NCBI GenBank assembly: GCA_024639145.1
Contig: JAHEIZ010000002.1
Location: forward strand, 155,027 to 219,026
Length of the DNA: 64,000 bases
Direction of reading: 5' to 3'
DNA from: Actinomycetes bacterium
Lineage (GTDB): Bacteria > Actinomycetota > Actinomycetes > S36-B12
In this document: piece by piece, positions 50,391-62,618 of the stretch
Layout of the letters: every line of letters begins with the position of its first letter
How positions within the stretch are numbered: position 1 is the first letter of the stretch
Notes under the pieces: model-generated
Told to the model about the DNA's origin: nothing
The model's input: only the letters and a program-made list of their open reading frames with translations
Database searches by the model: none
Made by a program: the position numbers and the translations under genes

Positions 50391-51379
50391 GCACTGCGTG
50401 GGATCCCTACATGAGCGAGGCGCTGGCCCTCGCCGTCTCCGTCGATGCGCCCCGCGGGGTGAATCCGCGCGTCGGCTGCGTTCTCGTCCGTGACTCCCGC
50501 GTGATCGGTCGCGGCTACCACCGTGGTTCGGGCACCGTCCATGCCGAGGTAGCCGCGCTGGCCGCGGCCACCGAGTCGCCGAGCGGTGCGACGGCCGTGG
50601 TCACCCTCGAGCCGTGCGCGCATGTGGGTCGTACGGGTCCGTGCGCTGACGCGCTGATCGAGGCAGGTATCTCGCGGGTCGTCTTCGCCCAGCCCGATCC
50701 CACCGAGCAGGCGGCCGGTGGTGCGGAGCGGCTGCGCGCGGCCGGTATCGAGGTGGTCACGGGCGTGCTGCTGGAGCAGGCTCTCGCCGTCAATGCAGAC
50801 TGGTCGTTCGTGAAGCTCCACGGTAGGCCGCACGTGACCTTGAAGCTGGCCGGCAGTCTCGATGGACGAGTCGACTCCGCGGGAGGCGAGCGGCTCATCC
50901 TCACCGGGGCCGAGGCGCAGGAGCAGGTGCAAGTACTGCGCGCGAGCGTCGACGCGATCGCGGTCGGCACCGGAACCATCGCCGCCGATGACCCGCAGCT
51001 CACCGTGCGCGGCCTCGACGTCTCTCCCGCGCCGCTGCGGGTCGTCCTGGGCTCGGCGCCGGTAGCCGCCGATGCCCGCGTGCGGGCGGCGGGCGCCGAG
51101 GTGATGCTGATCACTGAGCGCGATCCGCAGTCGGCCCTGAGCCTGCTGGCCGACAGGGGGATCCAGCGGCTGCTGCTCGAGGGCGGCCCGACGGTAGCCG
51201 CTGCTTATCTCGAGGCGGCTGTCGTCGACGAGGTGCACTGGTACGTCTCGCCTCTCCTGGTCGGCCAGGGGCCGATGGCGCTGAACGGACTGAGGGTGCA
51301 GATGGGCCTCGATGTCACCGGCGTTGACGTCGTGGGGGAGGATGTCCGCATCATCGGAATTCCCGCGGTCCGCGGGTAG
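50387..51379 (+). CDS. ribD: Riboflavin biosynthesis deaminase/reductase
   Basis: NPRVGCV, HAE, TLEPC...PC zinc motif, [16 protein letters not shown]. Confidence 0.95.
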
Positions 51380-51395
51380 CAGGAGAAGAGGCGAC

Positions 51396-52001
51396 GTGTT
51401 CACCGGTCTCGTCGAGGAGCGCGGCACCATCGTGTCGGTCGATGAGCTCAGTGACTCCGTGCGACTGACCGTCCGCGGTCCGCTCGTCACCTCCGACGCC
51501 GGCCATGGGGATTCCATTTCCGTCAACGGGGTCTGCCTGACAGTCGTCGCGAATGACAGCGGTGCCTTCACGGCCGATGTGATGCGCGAGACCCTGGTGC
51601 GCAGCTCACTCGGCTCGCTCGGAGCAGGCGACCAGGTCAACCTCGAGCGGGCAGCCCGTCTCGACGCCCGCATCGGCGGTCATCTCGTCCAGGGCCATGT
51701 CGACGGCACGGCAGAGGTGGAGGCGATCAGTCCATCCGAGAACTGGACCGTGGTGCGCTTCTCCCTGCCCTACGAACTGGCTCGATATGTCGTCGAGAAG
51801 GGCTCCATCACGGTCGACGGTGTCTCCTTGACGGTCGTCGAGGCGGGCGATGACTACTTCACCGTCTCGCTCATCCCCGAGACACTGAGTGCCACCACCC
51901 TCGGGTCGCGTGCGGTCGGCGACCTCGTTAACCTCGAAGTAGACGCGATCGCGAAATATGTCGAGCGCCTGATGCAATGGAGCAACCGTGATTCCCGCTG
52001 A
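51396..52001 (+). CDS. ribE: Riboflavin synthase
   Basis: (M)[48 protein letters not shown]. Confidence 0.97.
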
Positions 52002-53295
52002 CGAGATGTACGAGGGCGACACGGTAGTTGCCCCCAAGCCCACTCAGGTCCGACATTCCGCTCCCGCCCCTCGCTCAACCAATGGAATTCGGCTCGACTC
52101 CATTGAGGACGCCATTGCGGCGATCAAGGCCGGTCAGGCGGTAGTTGTTGTAGACGACGAGGATCGCGAGAACGAGGGCGACATGATCTTCGCCGCTTCT
52201 GCTGCGAACGCTCAGTTGTGCGCCTTCATGATCCGCTACACATCGGGCTTCATCTGCGTCGGAATGGAAGGCGAGGTGCTGGATCGACTCGGGCTCCCGC
52301 CGATGACCGCCGTCAACGAGGATCGCAAGGGAACGGCCTACTCGCTGTCCGTCGATGCTCGCGATGTCGTGAGCACCGGAATCTCGGCCGAGGATCGGGC
52401 GCACACCATCAATGTGCTCGCGGACTCGGCAACCGATCCGCGAGATCTCACTCGCCCCGGTCACGTGATGCCGCTACGTGCAGTGCCAGGCGGCGTCCTG
52501 CGTCGTCCCGGTCACACTGAGGCCGCTGTCGACCTCTCCCGGATGGCTGGGCTTTCGCCGGCGGGTGCATTGTGCGAGATGGTCAACGACGACGGCACGA
52601 TGATGAATGCCGCTGATTGCCGGGCCTTCTGCGACGAGCACGGCATCCTCTTGGTCTCGATCGCCGACATGATTCGCTACCGCCGTCGCGTCGAGACTCA
52701 GGTGGAACGGGTCGCTCAAGCTTCGCTTCCGACCGAGTACGGCGATTTCACCGTTCACGCCTTCCGGAGCATTGTTGACGAATCTGAGCACGTCGCGCTC
52801 GTGCGCGGCAACTTGGGTGACGGCGAGAACATCCTCGTGCGCGTTCACTCCGAGTGCCTGACCGGCGATATTTTCGGCTCGCTGCGCTGCGACTGCGGCC
52901 CGCAGCTTCACAACGCGATGCGCACGATCGCCGAGGAAGGGCGAGGCGTCGTGCTCTACATCAAGGGGCACGAAGGTCGCGGAATCGGCCTTCTCGACAA
53001 GATCAGGGCCTACAGCCTTCAGGACACCGGGCGCGACACCGTTGACGCCAACCTTGATCTCGGTCTTCCCGCCGATGCACGTGACTATGGAACCGGCGCG
53101 CAGATCCTCGCTGACCTCGGCGTGAAGTCGATGCGTTTGCTGACCAACAACCCGTCGAAGCGCGCGGGGCTCGAGGGGTACGGATTGTCCATCGTCGAAC
53201 GCGTGCCCCTGGTTGTCGCGCCTAATACCCACAATGCCGAGTACCTGAGCACGAAGGTTTCCCGCATGGGACATGACCTGGGTGAGGCCCAGTGA
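51988..53295 (+). CDS. ribBA: Bifunctional DHBP synthase/GTP cyclohydrolase II
   Basis: [54 protein letters not shown]; exact start uncertain (N-terminal extension of about 30 aa). Confidence 0.97.
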
Positions 53296-53765
53296 GCGGT
53301 GCCGGGGCAAGTGCATTGAAGGTCGATGGCAGCGGTCTTCGGGTTGCGATCGTCGCCTCGACCTGGCACGAGGTCGTGATGAACGGGTTGATCGACGGAG
53401 CCTCGCGTGCATGCGCCGAGGCAGGGGTAGAGGCGTCGCTCATTCGAGTTGCCGGCTCCTTCGAACTTCCGATCGTCGCTCAGTCCTGTGCACGCGCGGG
53501 CTTCGATGCCGTGATCGCCCTGGGAGTCATCATCCGAGGTGGAACTCCGCACTTCGAGTTTGTGAGCGACGCTGCTACGTCTGGTCTGACCCGAGTGGCG
53601 CTCGACACCGGAACTCCGGTGGGTTTCGGGCTGCTCACCTGCGATACCGAGCAGCAGGCTCTCAACCGTGCCGGACTCTCCGATTCTGTTGAGGACAAGG
53701 GTGCAGAAGCAGCTTGGGCGGCGATCACTACGGCCGTGACCCTCGGGGAACTTCGCACCCCGTAG
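53292..53765 (+). CDS. ribH: 6,7-dimethyl-8-ribityllumazine synthase
   Basis: [36 protein letters not shown]. Confidence 0.97.
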
Positions 53766-53775
53766 GCTTGAGCCC

Positions 53776-54039
53776 GTGAAGACCTTCGATGAGCTATACA
53801 GCGAGCTGGTGCGCAAGACCTCGCATGATGACCCGGATTCAGGCACGGTGAAGCTCCTGGCACAAGGCGTGCATGCCGTGGGCAAGAAGGTCGTCGAGGA
53901 AGCAGCCGAGTCATGGATGGCCGCAGAGTTCGAGGGCAAGGAGCGCACGGCCGAGGAGATCGCCCAGCTCCTGTACAACATTCAGGTGCTCATGCTCGCC
54001 TCGTCGGTGAGTCTCGATGACGTCTACCGACGTCTTTAG
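53776..54039 (+). CDS. hisE: Phosphoribosyl-ATP pyrophosphatase
   Basis: [32 protein letters not shown]. Confidence 0.96.
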
Positions 54040-54050
54040 TCGGAGGTCTC

Positions 54051-54896
54051 ATGCTTCGCGTCGCCGTTCCCAACAAGGGCCAGCTTGCTGAGCCTGCCCG
54101 CAGCATGCTGATGGAGGCCGGGTACATCCGTACCGCTTCCACTCGCGATCTCGTCGTTCATGATCCTGAGAATGATGTCGAATTCTTTTTCCTGCGCCCG
54201 CGCGATATCGCCATCTACGTGGGCGAGGGCACGCTCGATCTCGGAATCACAGGTCGCGACATGCTTCTTGACTCTGGTGCCCAGGCTTCGGAGATGCTCG
54301 CACTCGGATTCGCGCCTTCGACCTTCAGGTTTGCGGCACCCAGTGGTTCGTCCCTGAGCATCACCGATCTCAATGGCTTGCGCATCGCGACTTCGTACGC
54401 CGGTCTCCTCGAGGCCTGGCTCCTCGATCACGACATCTCTGCTCGCGTGGTCAAGCTCGATGGCGCGGTAGAGAATGCCATTGCCCTAGGCGTCGCTGAT
54501 GCCATCGCAGACGTCGTGGCCACCGGAAGTACCCTGAAGAAGGCCGGCCTGGAGATCCTGGGTGATCCGATCCTGGTGTCCGAGGCGCTCGTCGTTCGAC
54601 GTACCGGTGCCGAGACCAATCCCGCGATCGAGACCTTCATGCGTCGATTGAATGGCGTCATGGTGGCTCGGTCATACGTGCTGGTCGACTATGACATCCT
54701 TACTTCAGAGCTCGACCGTGCCTGCGCGATCACGCCTGGCATCGAGTCGCCAACCGTGTCCTCGCTGCGCGACTCGACCTGGTCCGCGGTGCGCGCGATG
54801 GTGCCATCGCGTGACGTCCACCAGGTTATGGACGAGCTCTACGAGCTCGGCGCCCGCGGGATCTTAGTCACGGACATCCACGCCTGTCGGCTCTAG
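54051..54896 (+). CDS. hisG: ATP phosphoribosyltransferase (long form)
   Basis: MLRVAVPNKG, LRPRDIA, DLGITGRD, LDGAVE, DVVATGSTL, ESPTVS. Confidence 0.98.
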   Translation: MLRVAVPNKGQLAEPARSMLMEAGYIRTASTRDLVVHDPENDVEFFFLRPRDIAIYVGEGTLDLGITGRDMLLDSGAQASEMLALGFAPSTFRFAAPSGSSLSITDLNGLRIATSYAGLLEAWLLDHDISARVVKLDGAVENAIALGVADAIADVVATGSTLKKAGLEILGDPILVSEALVVRRTGAETNPAIETFMRRLNGVMVARSYVLVDYDILTSELDRACAITPGIESPTVSSLRDSTWSAVRAMVPSRDVHQVMDELYELGARGILVTDIHACRL

Positions 54897-54898
54897 TC

Positions 54899-55348
54899 GT
54901 GCCGCCTGAAGATCTCGGCAAGGGCCGAAGCCTCGCCGGGCCGGCCTTTCCTGCCGATGATGGCGCGGCAGACCCGGTTCTGCGTGCACTCCTCGATGGC
55001 GGCTGCGGTTCCGAGGAGGAGATGCTCCGGGCGCTGTCCCGCTCACGCCTGCTGGTGGCCGTCATGGCCGTGGCTGACGAGGTGGCCGAGGACGGCTCCG
55101 ACAAGAGCAGCCACATGGCCGTGGTGTCCATGGTCAATGCCGCGGGGGAGAAGGGACTGCTGGCGTTCACCGGTTTGGACTCCATGGCCGCCTGGAATCC
55201 CGATGCGCGCCCCGTGCCCGTACCCGCTCGGGCTGCGGCCGAGGCCGCCTTGGCCGATGGCGCCCAGGCGCTGGTCATCGACGTGGCCGGGCCGGCCCGA
55301 GTCGTCCTGCCTGCAGAGGTGTTGCCGGAGATCATGGGGGGCGAGTGA
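54899..55348 (+). CDS. SseB-family protein
   Basis: DDGAADP, SRLLVAV, DKSSHMAVV, LLAFTG...AWNPDARPVPV, LVIDVAGP. Confidence 0.75.
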   Translation: MPPEDLGKGRSLAGPAFPADDGAADPVLRALLDGGCGSEEEMLRALSRSRLLVAVMAVADEVAEDGSDKSSHMAVVSMVNAAGEKGLLAFTGLDSMAAWNPDARPVPVPARAAAEAALADGAQALVIDVAGPARVVLPAEVLPEIMGGE

Positions 55349-55420
55349 CGCCTGGTCACCGAGTCGTCGGACACCTGATAGCCTTACCGTGATCGGATGG
55401 GTGCCAGACACCTGTTCGCG

Positions 55421-55467
55421 TAAGCGGAACCTCGGTTCCCACCCGCCATCTCTAAGGTGACCGGGTC
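55421..55467 (+). ncRNA. L20 leader (ribosomal protein autoregulatory RNA)
   Basis: TAAGCGGAAC-CTCG-GTTCCCACCCG...CGGGT resembles the AAGCRGA...UCYCACC core of the L20 leader; upstream of infC-rpmI-rplT; -10 TAGCCT 55379-55384. Confidence 0.7.
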
Positions 55468-55508
55468 TGATGCACGGCTAGCCCATTGGGCGTAGCCATG
55501 CGTTGCCG

Positions 55509-55543
55509 AGACCTCCGCGCGCTGCGTCGGAGGTCTTTCCTTT
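55509..55543 (+). terminator. Intrinsic terminator/attenuator in the infC leader
   Basis: Stem AGACCTCCG 55509-55517 / CGGAGGTCT 55528-55536 followed by TTCCTTT. Confidence 0.7.
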
Positions 55544-55577
55544 GCCGCGGATCCTCCACCTCGAGCAAGGAGGCGCC

Positions 55578-56153
55578 ATCAGCGTCGAACCCCGGATCAA
55601 CGACCGGATCCGCGTGCCTGAGGTCCGACTTGTCGGACCCGCTGGTGAGCAGGTGGGCATCGTGCGCATCGAAGATGCGCTGCGCCTGGCAGTCGAGGCA
55701 GATCTCGATCTTGTCGAGGTCGCTCCGATGGCGAAGCCTCCGGTCTGCAAGCTCATGGACTTCGGAAAGTTCAAGTACGAAGCCGCCATGAAGGAGCGTG
55801 AATCACGGCGTAACCAAACGCACACGATCATCAAGGAGATGAAGCTTCGGCCGAAGATCGACTCGCACGACTACGAGACCAAGAAGGGTCACGTCGAGCG
55901 GTTCCTGAAGGCCGGCGACAAGGTCAAGATCACGATCATGTTCCGCGGTCGTGAGCAGAGTCGTCCCGAACTGGGCCTGCGCCTTCTCGCCAAGCTCGCC
56001 GAAGATGTCGAGCCGTTGGGCTTCGTCGAGGCAACGCCGAAGCAGGACGGTCGCAACATGATCATGGTGCTCGCCCCGCATCGCAAGAAGTCTGAGGCCG
56101 GGAAGGCCTCTGCAACCGAAGACTCGCAAGAAGACATCAGCACCACCAACTAA
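55578..56153 (+). CDS. infC: Translation initiation factor IF-3, probable non-canonical ATC start
   Basis: SD AAGGAGG 55567-55573 then ATC AGC GTC GAA CCC CGG ATC AAC; [44 protein letters not shown]. Confidence 0.97.
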
Positions 56154-56174
56154 CGAATAGCGAACGAGGTCAAC

Positions 56175-56369
56175 ATGCCAAAGCAAAAGACGCACAGTGG
56201 CGCCAAGAAGCGATTCAAGGTGACCGGCTCGGGGAAGATCACCCACGAGCAGGCCAACCGCCGTCACCTCATGGAGGTCAAGTCGAGCAAGCGCACCCGC
56301 AAGCTCGAGTCCGACCAGGTCGTGGCACCCGCCGATGTCAAGAAGGTCAAGCGCCTTCTCGGTCGCTAA
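56175..56369 (+). CDS. rpmI: 50S ribosomal protein L35
   Basis: [21 protein letters not shown]. Confidence 0.98.
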
Positions 56370-56402
56370 CCCTTACTCACACTTTTCTTGTAGGAGATTG
56401 AA

Positions 56403-56771
56403 ATGGCACGTGTAAAGCGCGCAGTAAATGCACATAAGAAGCGTCGTGAGATCCTCGAGCGGGCCTCCGGATACCGCGGGCAGCGTTCGCGCCTGTACCG
56501 CAAGGCCAAGGAGCAGGTCACTCACTCCATGGTCTACGCGTACGCCGACCGTCGTACGCGTAAGGGTGATTTCCGTCGCCTGTGGATCCAGCGCATCAAC
56601 GCCGGTGCCCGCGCGAACGACATGACCTACAACCGCTTCATCCAGGGCCTCAAGGCAGCTGGCGTCGAAGTCGATCGTCGCATGCTGGCCGAATTGGCCG
56701 TCAACGATGCTCCGGCCTTCGCCGCGCTCGTCGAGATTGCCAAGTCGGCACTGCCGGCGACCGCAGCCTGA
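56403..56771 (+). CDS. rplT: 50S ribosomal protein L20
   Basis: [36 protein letters not shown]. Confidence 0.99.
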
Positions 56772-56784
56772 AGCGTTACATCCC

Positions 56785-57618
56785 GTGAGTCACTCAACTC
56801 CTGAGCTGACTTCACCACGTTCGCCGCGTGTCGCGGCGGTCAAGCGACTTCACAGTTCGCGCGGCCGCCGCGATTCGCATTTGTTCCTCGTGGAGGGACC
56901 CCAGGGGGTGCGTGAGGCACTTCTGCGGCCGGGCATCGTGGAGGAGATCTACCTTTCCGACGCGGCCACTGACGTCTGCCGAGACCTCGCGAACGATGCC
57001 CCCGCGAGAGTCACGGTCGTATCCGAAGAGGTCCTGGCGTCCATGGGTGAGACTCAGGTGCCGCAGGGCATTCTCGCCGTCTGTCATTGGGTCACTCGAT
57101 CGCTGGGCGAGGTGCTCACACCCGGCACCGAGATGGCGGTGATCATCGACGGCGCGGGGGATCCTGGCAATGTCGGCACGATCATTCGAACTGCGCACGC
57201 CGCGGGCGCGGATGCCGTCGTCATGACGAATGACTCCGTCGATCCGCACAACGGCAAATGCGTCCGCGCCACCGCGGGCTCCCTCTTTCATCTGCCCATC
57301 GCCACCGGTGTGGAGATCGGCGATGTTGTCGAGGCGGCGCGCCAGGCGGGTCTGACCCTTGCTGTCACCGCGGCAGATGGCGACGTGGGGCTCTACGAGA
57401 TCGTGTCGCGGCCGCAGCGGGGACCCATCGCCTGGATCCTCGGTTCGGAGGCGCACGGGGTCAGCCCGCAGATGCGCCTCGTGGCCGATGTCAGCGTCAA
57501 TATTCCGATGTTCGGGGCCTCGGAGTCGCTCAATGTGGGCTCGGCAGCCGCCATCTGCCTCTATGCGGATGCGGCGGCGCGCCATGGGCTCACGGCAGCA
57601 CCGAACTCCACTCGATGA
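56785..57618 (+). CDS. TrmH/SpoU-family RNA methyltransferase
   Basis: FLVEG, PQGILAV, DPGNVGTIIRTA, LGSEAHG, IPMFGASESLNV; GTG 56785; usual rplT-trmH-pheS position. Confidence 0.93.
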   Translation: MSHSTPELTSPRSPRVAAVKRLHSSRGRRDSHLFLVEGPQGVREALLRPGIVEEIYLSDAATDVCRDLANDAPARVTVVSEEVLASMGETQVPQGILAVCHWVTRSLGEVLTPGTEMAVIIDGAGDPGNVGTIIRTAHAAGADAVVMTNDSVDPHNGKCVRATAGSLFHLPIATGVEIGDVVEAARQAGLTLAVTAADGDVGLYEIVSRPQRGPIAWILGSEAHGVSPQMRLVADVSVNIPMFGASESLNVGSAAAICLYADAAARHGLTAAPNSTR

Positions 57619-57653
57619 TGGAAGAATTGGGTTCTCACACTGGAGGGGACACC

Positions 57654-58481
57654 ATGGGCTACACCAGGCTGCCGATTCTCGACGAGACCGGGTACGTCAT
57701 CGTCGACTCGTATGACCAGTCCGTCGACCCTCGTGAGTGGCTTGATGTGGAATACGTGGACTGGAAGTCATCCGGTGACACGCGCTTCGCGCCGTTGGCC
57801 AGTGCGTACGGGGACATGGAATGCAATGGCTTCTGGAATCACACGCCGCCGAAGACCGACAAGGATGGCGTGTGGGTCTCCAAGAACGTTGCCGATGCTC
57901 CAATCCTGACCCGGCGCGCGCAGGAACCAGGTGCCAATGTCGGTCGGTGTCGCATCATCGAATTGCAGCCGAATACATATGCGGATGCGATCTATAACCT
58001 TCATCGCGATGACAACAATCGATTGAATCCCGAAGGTACCGGTTGGATCGTGCGCGCCTTCTTCAATCTGACCGATGACCCTGATTCGGTGATGATCTTG
58101 CGCGAGGACAAGGACGATCCGGCCACCGAGACGCGAATCCCGCTGCCTGCAGGCGCACAGGTCATACTCGACACTCAGCGGCTGTACCACGCGGTCTGGC
58201 ACCCCGGGGACGAGCCGCGATATTGCCTCATCACCTCGTATGAGTCCGGGCCGGAGCTCGATTCATGGATCAACGCCCGTCGGCCTATTCCGCGTATTCT
58301 GTCAGCACCCCTGGATCCTGAGTTCGCACAGTCGGCCTACGCCGAAGCCCGGGCGAGGCGTGATGCTCGAGCTGCAGCTCTGGCCGCGAAGGGGGCTGAT
58401 CCCTCATTCGGCGACGGAACGCTCAGAGCAGGAGCGATCGACGAATATGAGTCCTCGGCCGAAGTTCTGTCCGAGGCATAG
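57654..58481 (+). CDS. Uncharacterised protein, predicted 2OG/Fe(II)-dependent oxygenase fold (Asp/Asn beta-hydroxylase-like)
   Basis: SD GGAGGGG then ATG 57654; 275 aa; RCRIIELQP...LH117-R-D119, ILDTQRLYH179AVWHPGDEPR189YCL. The CDS itself is clear; the fold is inferred from motif spacing. Confidence 0.7.
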   Translation: MGYTRLPILDETGYVIVDSYDQSVDPREWLDVEYVDWKSSGDTRFAPLASAYGDMECNGFWNHTPPKTDKDGVWVSKNVADAPILTRRAQEPGANVGRCRIIELQPNTYADAIYNLHRDDNNRLNPEGTGWIVRAFFNLTDDPDSVMILREDKDDPATETRIPLPAGAQVILDTQRLYHAVWHPGDEPRYCLITSYESGPELDSWINARRPIPRILSAPLDPEFAQSAYAEARARRDARAAALAAKGADPSFGDGTLRAGAIDEYESSAEVLSEA

Positions 58482-58605
58482 GCGTTACTGCGGGACCTTC
58501 GCAAGTGCGCAGGCGTTCCGCGTCCAATGAAGCCGCATCTGGAAGACTGAGCCTCGACTCACCGCTTTCAGGCACGAGTTCCGAACACGAAGACAGGAGA
58601 GCCGC

Positions 58606-59526
58606 GTGACTTCGTCCACGGTGCCGTATGACGCCGTCCTCGATGAACTTGAGGCCGAGGCTATTCACATCTACCGCGAGACTGCTGCGGCCTTTCGCAA
58701 TCCTGTCCTGCTCTACAGCATTGGTAAGGACTCCTCTGTTCTCCTTCACCTCGCGCAGAAGGCATTTGCTCCCGCGACGATTCCGTTCCCGGTGATGCAT
58801 ATCGACACCACTTGGAAGTTTCGCGAGATGATCGAGTTCCGCGATCGCCGAGCGACAGAGCTCAATCTTGACCTTCGAATCGCGCAGAACCTCTCCGCAA
58901 TCGCGGAGGGCGTCTCGCCATTCACGCATGGCACGCACGAGTACACGCGCTTGATGAAGACCGTTGCGCTTCGCGAGGGGCTCGATCGGTACGGATTCGA
59001 CGCCGCAGTGGGAGGTGCTCGACGTGACGAGGAGCGCAGCCGCGCCAAGGAGCGCATCTTCAGCCTTCGTGAGCCAGGTCATCAGTGGGATCCCCGCAAG
59101 CAGCGCCCGGAGTTCTGGCGAACGGCAAACACGCAACTGGCGCCGGGTCAGTCGATGCGAGTATTTCCCCTGTCCAACTGGACTGAGCTCGATGTCTGGA
59201 AGTACATCGAGCGCGAGAGCATCCCGATTCCCGATCTCTATTTCGCCAAGCCGCGGCCCGTCGTTGAACGTGACGGTGCGCTGATCATGGTGGATGACGA
59301 ACGGTTCCCGCTGCGTGACGGAGAAACTCCCGAACTTCGCATGGTGCGGTTTCGCACTCTGGGCTGCTATCCGCTTACTGGTGCCGTCGAATCGAAGGCA
59401 GACACCATGAAGGATCTCATCCGCGAGATGTCAGGGTCGAAGTACTCGGAGCGTTCCGGTCGGCTCATCGACGGCGAAGGCGGCTCGGAGTCCATGGAGG
59501 GCAAGAAGAAGGAAGGCTACTTCTAG
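58606..59526 (+). CDS. cysD: Sulfate adenylyltransferase subunit 2
   Basis: [68 protein letters not shown]. Confidence 0.98.
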
Positions 59527-61421
59527 TGGCAATCACACTCTCGGCAGCGCAGCTGACCCCGGTCCTGCACCTGGTTACCTGCGGTTCTGTCGATGACGGC
59601 AAGTCGACACTCATCGGTCGTCTCCTCGCGGAGACTGGCTCTGTGCCGCTCGACACCCTTGACTATGCCCGGCGCACGCGCCGCGGTGGCTCCACCGTTC
59701 CGGTCGGCGAGATCGACTACTCGCTGTTGACTGATGGGCTTGAGGCGGAACGCGAGCAGGGCATCACCATCGACGTTGCCTACCGTCACATGAACCTTCC
59801 GAACGGCCGCCGCGTCCTCGTGGCCGACTCGCCCGGTCACGAGCAGTACACGCGAAACATGGCGGTGGCTGCCTCGAACGGCGACGTGGCGATCTTGATG
59901 GTCGATGCCGCTCGCGGTGTCCGAGCCCAGACTCATCGTCACCTCACCATCTGCGCACTCATGGGCGTGAAGACCATCATCGTCGCCGTGAACAAGATGG
60001 ATTTGGTTTCCTACGAGCACGCCACCTATGAAGAGATCTCGGGTTCTGTGCGCGCGGCGGCAGCACGACTCGATGTGGCCGAGATCATCACGATTCCAGT
60101 GAGCGCGTTCTCAGGTGACAACATCACCGTTGCCAGCACCAATATGCCCTGGTACCAAGGGCCCACTCTGCTGGGTGCACTCGAGGAGTGGGAGCCCGTG
60201 CCCTCCGAGGCCGCGGCGAACGGCACTGAGCCCTTCAGGTTCCCCGTTCAGTTCATCGTGCGTGCTGACGGCAACTTCCGCGGATATGCGGGCACGGTTG
60301 TCTCGGGTTCGGTTGCGCGCGGCGACTCGATCGTCATCGCCGACAGCGGTCGCCCGGCCGTGGTCGATCGCATCGTGACTTATGACCTCCACACCGACGG
60401 GCATATCAAGGATCTCGATCGTGCCGAATGGGGGCAGGCCGTCACGATCACGCTCGACAGAGAGGTCGATGTGACGCGCGGTGATGTCATCACCGGCGCC
60501 GACGGCGATTCCTTGGAGCCTGCTGATCGCTTTGCAGTCGACATGGTGTGGCTGGGGGAGGAGCCCCTCGCACATGGTCGCTCCTACCTGCTCATCTCCG
60601 GGTCTCGATCCGTGCCGGCCACCGTCACGAACGTTCGTCACAAGACAGATGTCGTCACGGGACACCACGATGCCGCGCGCATCCTGGAGATGAATGACAT
60701 CGGCCGGGTAGAGGTTGCCACTGACAAGCCGGTTCCACTTGACACCTATGCAATGTGCCGCGACACCGGTGGCTTCCTCCTTGTCGACCGAGTTACGGCA
60801 GATACGGTCGCCGCGGGCATGGTGGTGCATTCGATGCGTCGTTCGGCCAACGTGAAGTATCACGACTACGCAGTTGATCATGAGGCTCGTAAGCTCCTCA
60901 TGGGTCACGATGCCAAGGTCGTCTGGCTGACAGGGCTGTCTGGAGCGGGCAAGTCGACCATCGCCGATGCGACTGTTCGCAAGCTGCATTCGTTGGGCGT
61001 GCACACGTATGTTCTTGATGGTGACAACGTGCGTCATGGTCTCAATAAGGATCTCGGCTTCACTCCGGAGGACAGGGCCGAGAACGTTCGGCGCGTCGCG
61101 GAGGTGAGCAAGCTGATGCGTGACTCCGGTGTCGTCGTACTGGTGGCGCTGGTCTCGCCCTTCACCGCGGATCGCCGAGCGGCGAAGGAGCTCTTCGAGC
61201 CCGGCGAATTCCTCGAGGTGTTCGTCGACACGCCCCTCGCCGTTGCTCAGGAGCGAGATCCGAAGGGCCTGTACGCGAAGGCGGCGGCCGGAAAACTGCC
61301 GAATATGACGGGCGTCGGGCAGGACTACGAGATCCCTGTGCACCCCGATCTCGTCCTGGCGGGCAACGGCGACCTTGATGCTTCTGTGGACTCGCTCGTC
61401 AAGGCCATCCTGGGCGAGTAG
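59526..61421 (+). CDS. cysNC: Bifunctional sulfate adenylyltransferase subunit 1 / adenylylsulfate kinase
   Basis: CGSVDDGKSTLIGRLL, EREQGITIDVAYR, DSPGHEQYTRNM, NKMD; C-terminal WLTGLSGAGKST, LDGDNVRHGL, RDPKGLY. Confidence 0.97.
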   Translation: MAITLSAAQLTPVLHLVTCGSVDDGKSTLIGRLLAETGSVPLDTLDYARRTRRGGSTVPVGEIDYSLLTDGLEAEREQGITIDVAYRHMNLPNGRRVLVADSPGHEQYTRNMAVAASNGDVAILMVDAARGVRAQTHRHLTICALMGVKTIIVAVNKMDLVSYEHATYEEISGSVRAAAARLDVAEIITIPVSAFSGDNITVASTNMPWYQGPTLLGALEEWEPVPSEAAANGTEPFRFPVQFIVRADGNFRGYAGTVVSGSVARGDSIVIADSGRPAVVDRIVTYDLHTDGHIKDLDRAEWGQAVTITLDREVDVTRGDVITGADGDSLEPADRFAVDMVWLGEEPLAHGRSYLLISGSRSVPATVTNVRHKTDVVTGHHDAARILEMNDIGRVEVATDKPVPLDTYAMCRDTGGFLLVDRVTADTVAAGMVVHSMRRSANVKYHDYAVDHEARKLLMGHDAKVVWLTGLSGAGKSTIADATVRKLHSLGVHTYVLDGDNVRHGLNKDLGFTPEDRAENVRRVAEVSKLMRDSGVVVLVALVSPFTADRRAAKELFEPGEFLEVFVDTPLAVAQERDPKGLYAKAAAGKLPNMTGVGQDYEIPVHPDLVLAGNGDLDASVDSLVKAILGE

Positions 61422-61508
61422 CCCACGCAGTCCGCACCCGGATCGCCTCACGACGCGCCAGGCACCTCGTTAGGCGCTGCACACTCGATCTGGGATACTC
61501 GGCACGCC

Positions 61509-62617
61509 ATGTCTGCACCCAATTCTGCCTTCGACCCCAAGCAGGTCGCGGCCCTCGACGCCTCGGCCATTGATGCCATGGTGGCTGACGCACTCGCCGC
61601 CATCGCCATGGCAGGTGATCTGGCAGCGATCAAGGAAGTCCGGTTGGCGCACGCCGGTGATCGATCGCCTTTGGCTCTTGCCAATCGTGAGATCGGTGCA
61701 CTTCCGCCCGCCGCGAAAGCGGAGGCCGGGAAGCGCATGGGCGAGGCTCGTGGAGCGATCAAGAGCGCTCTTGAAGCCCGCACCGAGATCCTCGAACTCG
61801 AACGCGACGAACGTGCTCTCGTCGAGGAGGCCGTCGATGTCACCCTGCCCGTGGATCGGGCGCCGCTTGGCGCGCGGCATCCGCTCACGACTCTGATGGA
61901 ACGCATCTGCGACGTCTTCATTGCCATGGGCTACGACATTGCCGAGGGCCCCGAAGTCGAATCCGAATGGGTGAACTTCGATGCGTTGAACGTGCCCCCC
62001 GATCATCCGGCGCGCACGATGCAGGACACCTTCTACGTGGGTTCTCCCGAGAGCGGTGTAGTGCTGCGTACCCAGACCTCGCCCATTCAGATCCGGGCGA
62101 TGCTTGAGCGTCCGCTGCCCATCTACGTGGTGGCACCCGGTCGGGTCTTTCGCACCGATGAGCTTGATGCCACTCACACGCCTGTCTTTCACCAGGTGGA
62201 AGGCCTCGCCGTTGATGAGAACATCACGATGGCTGATCTCAAGGGCACCTTGGATCACTTTGCCGCCGAGATGTTCGGCGCGGGCATCGTGACCCGACTT
62301 CGTCCCTCGTACTTCCCTTTCACTGAGCCGAGCGCCGAGCTCGATGTGCAGTGCTTCGTGTGCCGTGGTGCCTCGATCGGGAATCCGGATAGCTCGTGCC
62401 GCACATGCGGCAGTGAAGGCTGGATCGAATGGGGCGGCTGCGGAATGGTAAACCCGCGCGTCCTCGATGCGGTGGGGATCGACTCCGCCAAGTACCGCGG
62501 ATTCGCATTCGGAATGGGAATCGAACGAACTCTGATGTTCCGTAACGGAGTAACTGACATGCGCGACATGGTCGAAGGCGATATTCGATTCAGTCAGGCC
62601 TTCGGAGTGGAGTCCTG

Positions 62618-62618
<1 letters not shown>
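61509..62618 (+). CDS. pheS: Phenylalanine--tRNA ligase alpha subunit
   Basis: [53 protein letters not shown]. Confidence 0.99.

Follow-up and report, generated by a model that had tools for sequence, protein, structure and literature searches.

The window analysed here is a stretch of 64,000 nucleotides (nt) (contig C54:155027-219026) from an Actinomycetes genome (G000; 2.52 Mb, 95% complete), and this analysis was concerned with a row of three genes within it. These are an unannotated gene, here called oxyA, followed by cysD and by cysNC, a fusion of the CysN GTPase with an APS (adenosine 5'-phosphosulfate) kinase. The row is probably an ordinary sulfate-activation operon of the Mycobacterium tuberculosis type that lies behind an unannotated but widespread Fe(II)/2-oxoglutarate (2OG) oxygenase, whose role would be independent of sulfur. 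We read the oxyA-cysD-cysNC arrangement of the window's family (f1) as a neighbourhood particular to that lineage, and not as a new system for sulfation. The initial annotation had proposed a dedicated hydroxylation and sulfation, or sulfur-scavenging, cassette, and had named three observations that would speak against it: homologues without linkage to sulfur genes, independent transcription, and a CysDNC pair that serves ordinary assimilation. The first and the last of these were found, and the proposal was not upheld.

The distribution of the oxygenase carries much of this reading. A survey of 251 genomes of the order found the oxygenase in 134 of them and cysD in 189, and outside f1 the two genes are adjacent only in G032 (family f9). 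In 20 genomes of the order they lie apart, either on different contigs or 340-385 kb distant. For example, cysD is present in all 28 genomes of genus g31 and in all 11 of genus g26, none of which has the oxygenase, and genus g25 has the oxygenase in 27 of 28 genomes and cysD in 13 of 28. Five oxygenase-bearing genomes (92-99% complete) had no match to PF01507 (the PAPS_reduct family, to which cysD and cysH belong) and no ATP sulfurylase above cut-off; NIR_SIR was found in one of the five. Relatives of the oxygenase were also sought in 185,579 species genomes. The family was confirmed in at least 595 species-level genomes from two phyla, and the best 80 loci, all from outside the order, were examined (L042-L121). 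These belong to Ilumatobacteraceae/Acidimicrobiia, to Chitinophagaceae/Bacteroidota and to a few differently labelled metagenome-assembled genomes, with proteins 43-53% identical to that of the window. None of the 80 had cysD, cysNC, trmH or pheS within 6 kb of the oxygenase, and no conserved co-directional partner was seen in them, so that the oxygenase stands alone. The recurrent linkage to sulfur genes expected by the initial annotation is thus absent from these loci, as it is from the 20 genomes of the order in which the genes are apart. The oxygenase family is independent of sulfate activation, and its occurrence in separate phyla suggests transfer between them.

The sulfur genes elsewhere in the genome point the same way. 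PF01507 matched exactly two genes in G000, cysD itself and a cysH gene at C25:74917-75399. The CysH protein contains DLCCKMRKVEP, SIGCAPCT and ECGLH, which is the CC...CxxC plus ECGLH arrangement of the Fe-S type. This arrangement distinguishes APS reductases from reductases of PAPS (3'-phosphoadenosine 5'-phosphosulfate). NCBIfam models do not separate the two kinds in this case: NF002537 scored 249.7 bits, above its cut-off, and TIGR02055 scored 213.5 bits, below its cut-off of 235.3. On C25 cysH stands in a row with sirA (of the NirA type), cysG and a sirohydrochlorin chelatase gene, all of them single copy. Because these four genes are present, CysDNC can serve ordinary assimilation, and the suggestion that the pair is reserved for sulfation is not supported. 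The genes lie outside the window, as had been claimed: tblastn with the G000 proteins and a relative's TauE permease found no cysH, sirA, cysG, sulfotransferase or TauE permease in the 64 kb.

NodPQ of rhizobia and RaxPQ of Xanthomonas are PAPS suppliers of the CysD/CysN-CysC type that support sulfation of a specific molecule, and the initial annotation had compared the pair with them. Unlike those systems, the window holds the sole cysD and the sole cysNC of the genome (tblastn of G000), these genes coexist with cysH and sirA, and no sulfotransferase gene lies in the window. The pair is therefore not an extra copy dedicated to sulfation, and the likeness to NodPQ and RaxPQ was set aside. The closer parallel is with M. 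tuberculosis. According to PMC4373884, CysD works there with a CysN-CysC fusion to produce both APS, the substrate of CysH, and PAPS, which sulfotransferases use; CysD (Rv1285) and CysN-CysC (Rv1286) are a two-gene unit with the APS kinase fused at the C-terminus; and cysH and sulfite reductase are at a separate locus, with APS as the branch point between reduction and sulfation. The window and its genome resemble this arrangement. They differ from M. tuberculosis in that the gene immediately before the pair is an oxygenase gene unrelated to it, within an rplT-trmH-pheS cluster, and in that a single sulfotransferase candidate (PF03567) was found in G000. The Stf0-type model (PF09037) and PF17784 had no match in G000, but both were silent in the control genomes too and are uninformative. 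PF13469 and PF00685 also had no match in G000, and their controls were positive.

The identity of the pair itself stood as first described. CysD scored 478.6 bits with NF009214 (cut-off 413), 466.3 bits with TIGR02039 (cut-off 396.6) and 177.6 bits with PF01507. CysNC scored 757 bits with NF004035, against a cut-off of 715. Its GTPase part covers approximately residues 1-435, where the CysN model TIGR02034 matches residues 14-433, and its APS kinase part covers approximately residues 440-631 (nt 60843-61418), where the apsK model TIGR00455 matches residues 446-626. The kinase domain is full, with 206.8 bits to PF01583 over profile positions 3-151 of 152. The translation also contains GSVDDGKST, DSPGH and NKMD, which we take to be the GTPase motifs, and GLSGAGKST, which we take to be the kinase P-loop. 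The fusion is not particular to the window. An APS kinase domain within a frame of about 610-700 amino acids was found in 170 of the 251 genomes of the order, with or without the oxygenase and with or without the sulfotransferase, and CysN is usually fused to CysC throughout the order. The cysD-cysNC loci of seven other genomes shared no conserved partner gene, and neither cysH nor sirA was seen within 6 kb of them.

The place of the three genes in the chromosome was also compared among genomes. The plus-strand order over 56403-62618, from the ORF (open reading frame) listing and translation, is rplT, a SpoU/TrmH methyltransferase gene (trmH), the 275-residue ORF (oxyA), cysD, cysNC and pheS. 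The ORF calls and the family matches of the flanking genes bore out the description of three co-oriented genes between trmH and pheS. Of five genomes of the order without the oxygenase, four confirmed the claim that trmH and pheS are normally contiguous and have rplT-trmH-pheS with gaps of about 60-150 nt; the fifth has no trmH within 1.5 kb. In three loci (G031, G033 and G025) the order is rplT-trmH-oxyB-oxyA-pheS without cysDNC, where oxyB is a paralogue of oxyA. The junction was seen in several states: empty; with oxyB and oxyA; with oxyB and oxyA followed by cysD-cysNC; and, in f1, with oxyA followed by cysD-cysNC. Since trmH directly precedes pheS in four of the five oxygenase-less genomes, the junction takes insertions in differing combinations, and we infer that its states arose by separate insertions.

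The product of oxyA is confidently predicted to be an Fe(II)/2OG oxygenase with a double-stranded beta-helix (DSBH) fold. It is called an oxygenase because of the predicted fold and the motif, as the sequence searches did not place it. No Pfam or NCBIfam family matched at E<=0.01. The only Pfam signal was to PF05118 (Asp_Arg_Hydrox), with E 0.068 and 13.5 bits over residues 160-195 (the C-terminal strands). This does not reach the gathering cut-off of 22.6 bits; the oxyB paralogue gave E 0.053. No other Pfam family matched even at E<=10, the TauD family included, and a sequence search of the Protein Data Bank (PDB) with a 39-sequence profile of oxyA returned one chance match (E 1.3). An AlphaFold (AF2) model from the 39-sequence alignment had a mean pLDDT (predicted local distance difference test) of 88.3 and a pTM (predicted template modelling score) of 0.86. 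It has a DSBH core over approximately residues 1-225 and a helix at 222-245, followed by a low-confidence tail. At E<=0.001 the model had 293 Foldseek matches in the PDB, the listed ones being Fe/2OG oxygenases. The top match is L-proline cis-4-hydroxylase 4p7w (E 1.3e-6, TM-score 0.52), and other leading matches are proline 3-hydroxylase 1e5r (E 5.8e-6), SnoN/SnoK, PHD2, AspH (5apa) and HygX. Thus, the model, the Foldseek matches and the conserved residues agree with the initial annotation on the nature of the first gene.

Residues H117, D119, N121, N122, H179, H183, R189, Y190 and S195 are near-invariant among the 39 aligned sequences, in which H117 and D119 (the HRD motif), H179, H183 and R189 are each at least 90% conserved. 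H117, D119 and a further histidine would provide a 2-His-1-carboxylate metal triad of the form HxD...H, whose distal ligand is predicted to be H179 or H183; two distant homologues are without H179 and have H183. R189 lies 10 residues past H179 and is the first residue of strand 189-197, and from this position only we infer that it binds the C5 carboxylate of 2OG. The proline hydroxylases 4p7w and 1e5r share with oxyA the DSBH fold, the HxD...H motif and an arginine about 10 residues past a conserved histidine (TM-scores of about 0.44-0.52). Unlike these shared features, sequence identity to them is only 15-17%, and no sequence family is shared. PF05118 is the sole sequence family with a signal for oxyA, and AspH is among the fold matches; as the score lies below the gathering cut-off, oxyA does not belong to PF05118 by the Pfam rule. 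TauD and AtsK have the same superfamily chemistry as that predicted for oxyA, but oxyA has no Pfam match to TauD and neither enzyme is among the 48 listed of the 293 fold matches. Given the 15-17% identity to the fold matches and the lack of membership in a sequence family, a substrate cannot be transferred to oxyA from known enzymes. The closest homologues in public records are labelled 'Candidatus Nanopelagicales bacterium' or 'freshwater metagenome', with the product 'hypothetical protein'.

These results are probably best explained by two functionally separate units, side by side at an insertion-prone point of the rplT-trmH-pheS cluster. In one unit CysD would adenylate sulfate, with the CysN GTPase driving the reaction. 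The APS would pass to the Fe-S-type CysH and the NirA-type sulfite reductase encoded on the other contig and on to cysteine and methionine synthesis, and the fused CysC domain would convert part of it to PAPS. As an f1-restricted sulfotransferase is present, PAPS made by CysC has a plausible consumer in f1, which would be this Sulfotransfer_2 enzyme encoded elsewhere in the genome. The other unit would be a soluble Fe(II)/2OG oxygenase with the HxD...H triad and an arginine placed for 2OG binding, and the target of its hydroxylation is probably either a small molecule or a side chain of a protein. Co-transcription of the two in f1 would then reflect operon packing and not a common pathway.

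Several observations weigh against this separation of the oxygenase from sulfate activation. The adjacency is very stable within f1: oxyA and cysD are adjacent in 18 of 19 relatives' loci examined and in 59 of 64 f1 genomes, with the other five undetermined. Being related, the 59 genomes may all go back to one insertion event and do not amount to 59 independent observations in either direction. In two relatives (G011 and G022; L011 and L019) oxyA ends in an ATGA overlap with the start codon of cysD and there is no spacer, as in a functional operon. A Sulfotransfer_2 (PF03567) gene is encoded in G000 at C20:52280-53068 (L040:8281-9072; 73.9 bits), and when its protein was used as the query, 49 of 63 f1 genomes gave a match and none of 187 genomes of other families did. 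No SulP was found in G000 and a canonical sulfate transporter was not identified; the best TIGR00969-like permease scored 198.7 bits (cut-off 240) and stands beside an SBP_bac_11 binding protein, and it may carry either sulfate or molybdate. Finally, contigs from three riverine metatranscriptome runs of a single study were compared with 56400-61600, and none fell on oxyA, the spacer or trmH, a non-coverage that proves nothing. Near-identical short contigs fell only on cysD (58701-59000) and cysNC (59564-59993 and 60400-60619), and less similar ones on rplT; contigs from RNA libraries do not by themselves prove transcription.

The oxyA-cysD-cysNC row is probably co-transcribed in f1. This is considered likely because of the ATGA overlaps in relatives and because no plus-strand terminator or RNA element separates the genes. 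Rfam gave nothing at E<=1 for the stretch 55300-62000, and there was no plus-strand terminator-like or promoter-like site in the oxyA-cysD spacer and no plus-strand terminator between infC and pheS. Compared with shuffled sequence, the spacer has no extra fold stability (z = 0.89).

The overlap in two relatives and the f1-restricted sulfotransferase are also what speaks for a link to sulfation confined to f1, in which the oxygenase would hydroxylate a lipid, glycan, peptide or metabolite and the C20 Sulfotransfer_2 enzyme would O-sulfate it with PAPS from CysDNC. The initial annotation had placed such a sulfotransferase elsewhere in the genome. That part was borne out by the C20 gene, but nothing ties this gene to the oxygenase: it is far off on C20, flanked by a class A penicillin-binding protein/metallophosphoesterase and by asd-ask. 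Three f1 genera keep the oxyA-cysD adjacency without a sulfotransferase match (none of six genomes in g9, of three in g14 and of one in g8). In addition, the oxygenase remains about 70-75% identical in genomes without any PAPS synthesis, and its ancestral role was therefore not sulfation. We consider the link to sulfation unlikely. A broader version is judged similarly improbable, namely that a new oxygenase family, probably shared horizontally by Nanopelagicales, Ilumatobacteraceae/Acidimicrobiia and Chitinophagaceae, was joined in f1 to the cysD-cysNC transcript (by ATGA in some genomes) and may there supply the hydroxyl acceptor for the f1 Sulfotransfer_2 enzyme; the product would be a sulfated metabolite, or a component of the envelope, not seen before. 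Our literature searches found no paper on a unit that joins an oxygenase to cysDNC.

Cleavage of sulfonates and sulfate esters by 2OG-dependent enzymes is established (TauD, AtsK), and oxyA lies directly 5' of cysD. The oxygenase could in this case be a desulfonating or desulfating enzyme of the TauD/AtsK kind that feeds assimilation, as the initial annotation had also suggested, and the genome does have organosulfur-scavenging genes elsewhere, with two SfnB-like genes and an NtaA/DmoA-type monooxygenase gene near sirA-cysH. This explanation is very improbable. Neither the Pfam search nor the listed fold matches gave a TauD or AtsK signal for oxyA, and released sulfite would skip CysDNC in any case. 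The oxygenase is also kept in all five tested genomes without cysD, cysH and ATP sulfurylase, four of which are without NIR_SIR too, which leaves these genomes no route to assimilate any sulfate or sulfite that it set free.

A different proposal is that the oxygenase is a translation-associated hydroxylase of a ribosomal protein, a translation factor or a tRNA, which would account for its place in the rplT-trmH-pheS cluster and for its housekeeping-like conservation. Throughout the order the oxygenase is at home in the trmH-pheS junction, whether cysDNC is there or not, and the leading structural matches include PHD2-type protein hydroxylases. Within the same f1 loci the oxygenase is 70-80% identical, compared with 39-52% for trmH, 75-86% for cysD and 87-94% for rplT. 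Other lineages also have tRNA-related housekeeping genes nearby (aat and tsaB, in 23 loci each), but these are on the opposite strand. Furthermore, oxyB and the homologues from other phyla have no conserved translation partner, the best structural matches are hydroxylases of free amino acids, and no oxygenase was found in 117 of the order's 251 genomes, so that a core role in translation can be set aside. There is thus little probability that this proposal is correct. The CysD-CysNC pair is textbook biochemistry in a mycobacterial arrangement, and the sulfur part of the locus adds little. The oxygenase is the better lead, since it has no Pfam or NCBIfam family, near-housekeeping conservation within the order and a presence in at least 595 species-level genomes; knowledge of its substrate could account for a trait that is common among abundant bacteria of aquatic habitats. 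The locus also provides a caution, as tight and even translationally coupled adjacency in one family need not imply a common pathway.

The features of the region are collected in Table 1.

Table 1. Genes and other features in and upstream of the rplT-pheS region, in window coordinates.
Feature	Position	Strand or location	Basis
ORFs resembling riboflavin synthesis genes	51312-53765	upstream	by-eye reading only
hisE/hisG-like ORFs	53776-54896	upstream	by-eye reading only
infC-like ORF	55503-56153	upstream	by-eye reading only
rplT (ribosomal protein L20)	56403..56771	+	sequence reading and synteny; 84-99% identity in relatives' syntenic loci
SpoU/TrmH-family RNA 2'-O-methyltransferase	56707..57618	+	PF00588 116.9 bits, PF22435 47.5 bits
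oxyA, predicted Fe(II)/2-oxoglutarate-type oxygenase, 275 aa	57654..58481	+	fold and conserved residues
oxyA-cysD spacer, 124 nt	58482..58605	+	no recognisable element
cysD, sulfate adenylyltransferase small subunit, 306 aa	58606..59526	+	NF009214, TIGR02039, PF01507
cysNC, CysN GTPase and APS kinase fusion, 631 aa	59526..61421	+	NF004035, TIGR02034, TIGR00455, PF01583
pheS	61509..62618	+	PF01409 334.1 bits

The true start of the methyltransferase gene is probably downstream of 56707, because the alignments of relatives begin at residues 20-49. The oxyA start is an ATG with GGAGGGG 7 nt 5' of it, and the same methionine opens most homologues. The cysD start is a GTG with AGGAG on its 5' side, and the GTG of cysNC shares one nucleotide with the TAG of cysD (TAGTG). 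The tail of the oxyA protein ends in a conserved EVLSEA (window 58380-58481 region), which is also kept in loci without cysD. In G011 and G022 (L011:2300-2325; L019:2300-2330) the codons for SEA (TCGGAGGCA) give a GGAGG just 5' of the ATGA overlap. Because these codons contain GGAGG before the cysD start, the oxyA tail and the ribosome-binding site of cysD share bases in these two genomes.

A second oxygenase copy, oxyB, is present in G000 outside the window (C31:57115-57975) and is 63-64% identical; in other families of the order the trmH-pheS junction contains oxyB and oxyA in tandem. It adjoins a P-loop protein that resembles PRK/uridine kinase, and this kinase is not kept in the other four stand-alone loci. 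No recurrent neighbour of stand-alone oxyB was found in the five loci (the comparison included L027, L028, L034 and L035). A possible viral connection of the oxygenase was followed from a viral cluster of 131 members (protein-atlas rank 8, score 0.96), and this lead was dropped because no search confirmed it: seven members of the oxygenase family had no PHROGs family, tblastn gave no match to the oxygenase in 50,697 phage records, and scans of IMG/VR gave no confirmed relative.

Outside the order, the neighbours downstream of the oxygenase are convergent. In Chitinophagaceae they encode a protein of metallo-beta-lactamase (MBL) fold and rhodanese domains, together with an ArsR regulator; in Ilumatobacteraceae the neighbour is methylmalonyl-CoA mutase. 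In 23 loci of the Chitinophagaceae type the convergent MBL-fold protein has two rhodanese domains and is followed by the ArsR regulator, a neighbourhood that resembles sulfide-detoxification operons.

One in-frame stop (TGA, TAG or TAA) lies inside the aligned stretch in 10 of the 50 listed sulfotransferase matches, which may reflect a different start, pseudogenes or assembly errors. On C25 the chelatase-cysG-cysH-sirA row (C25:72951-84674; L036) adjoins ORFs that resemble heme-biosynthesis genes by eye only. Within a few kb of sirA-cysH there are two SfnB-like oxidoreductases, a flavin mononucleotide (FMN) monooxygenase of the NtaA/DmoA family (555 bits) and MetY, a group that looks like an organosulfur-scavenging cluster. 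In G033 (L133:5423-10375) a TauE/SafE-family permease gene (147.7 bits) comes after cysD-cysNC, and its G000 homologue (61% identical, at C11:530-1231) is a candidate sulfate permease. The same G033 locus has a gene divergent from cysD for a protein of 405 amino acids without a Pfam family, which has a 30%-identical relative in G000 at C88:96905-97717.

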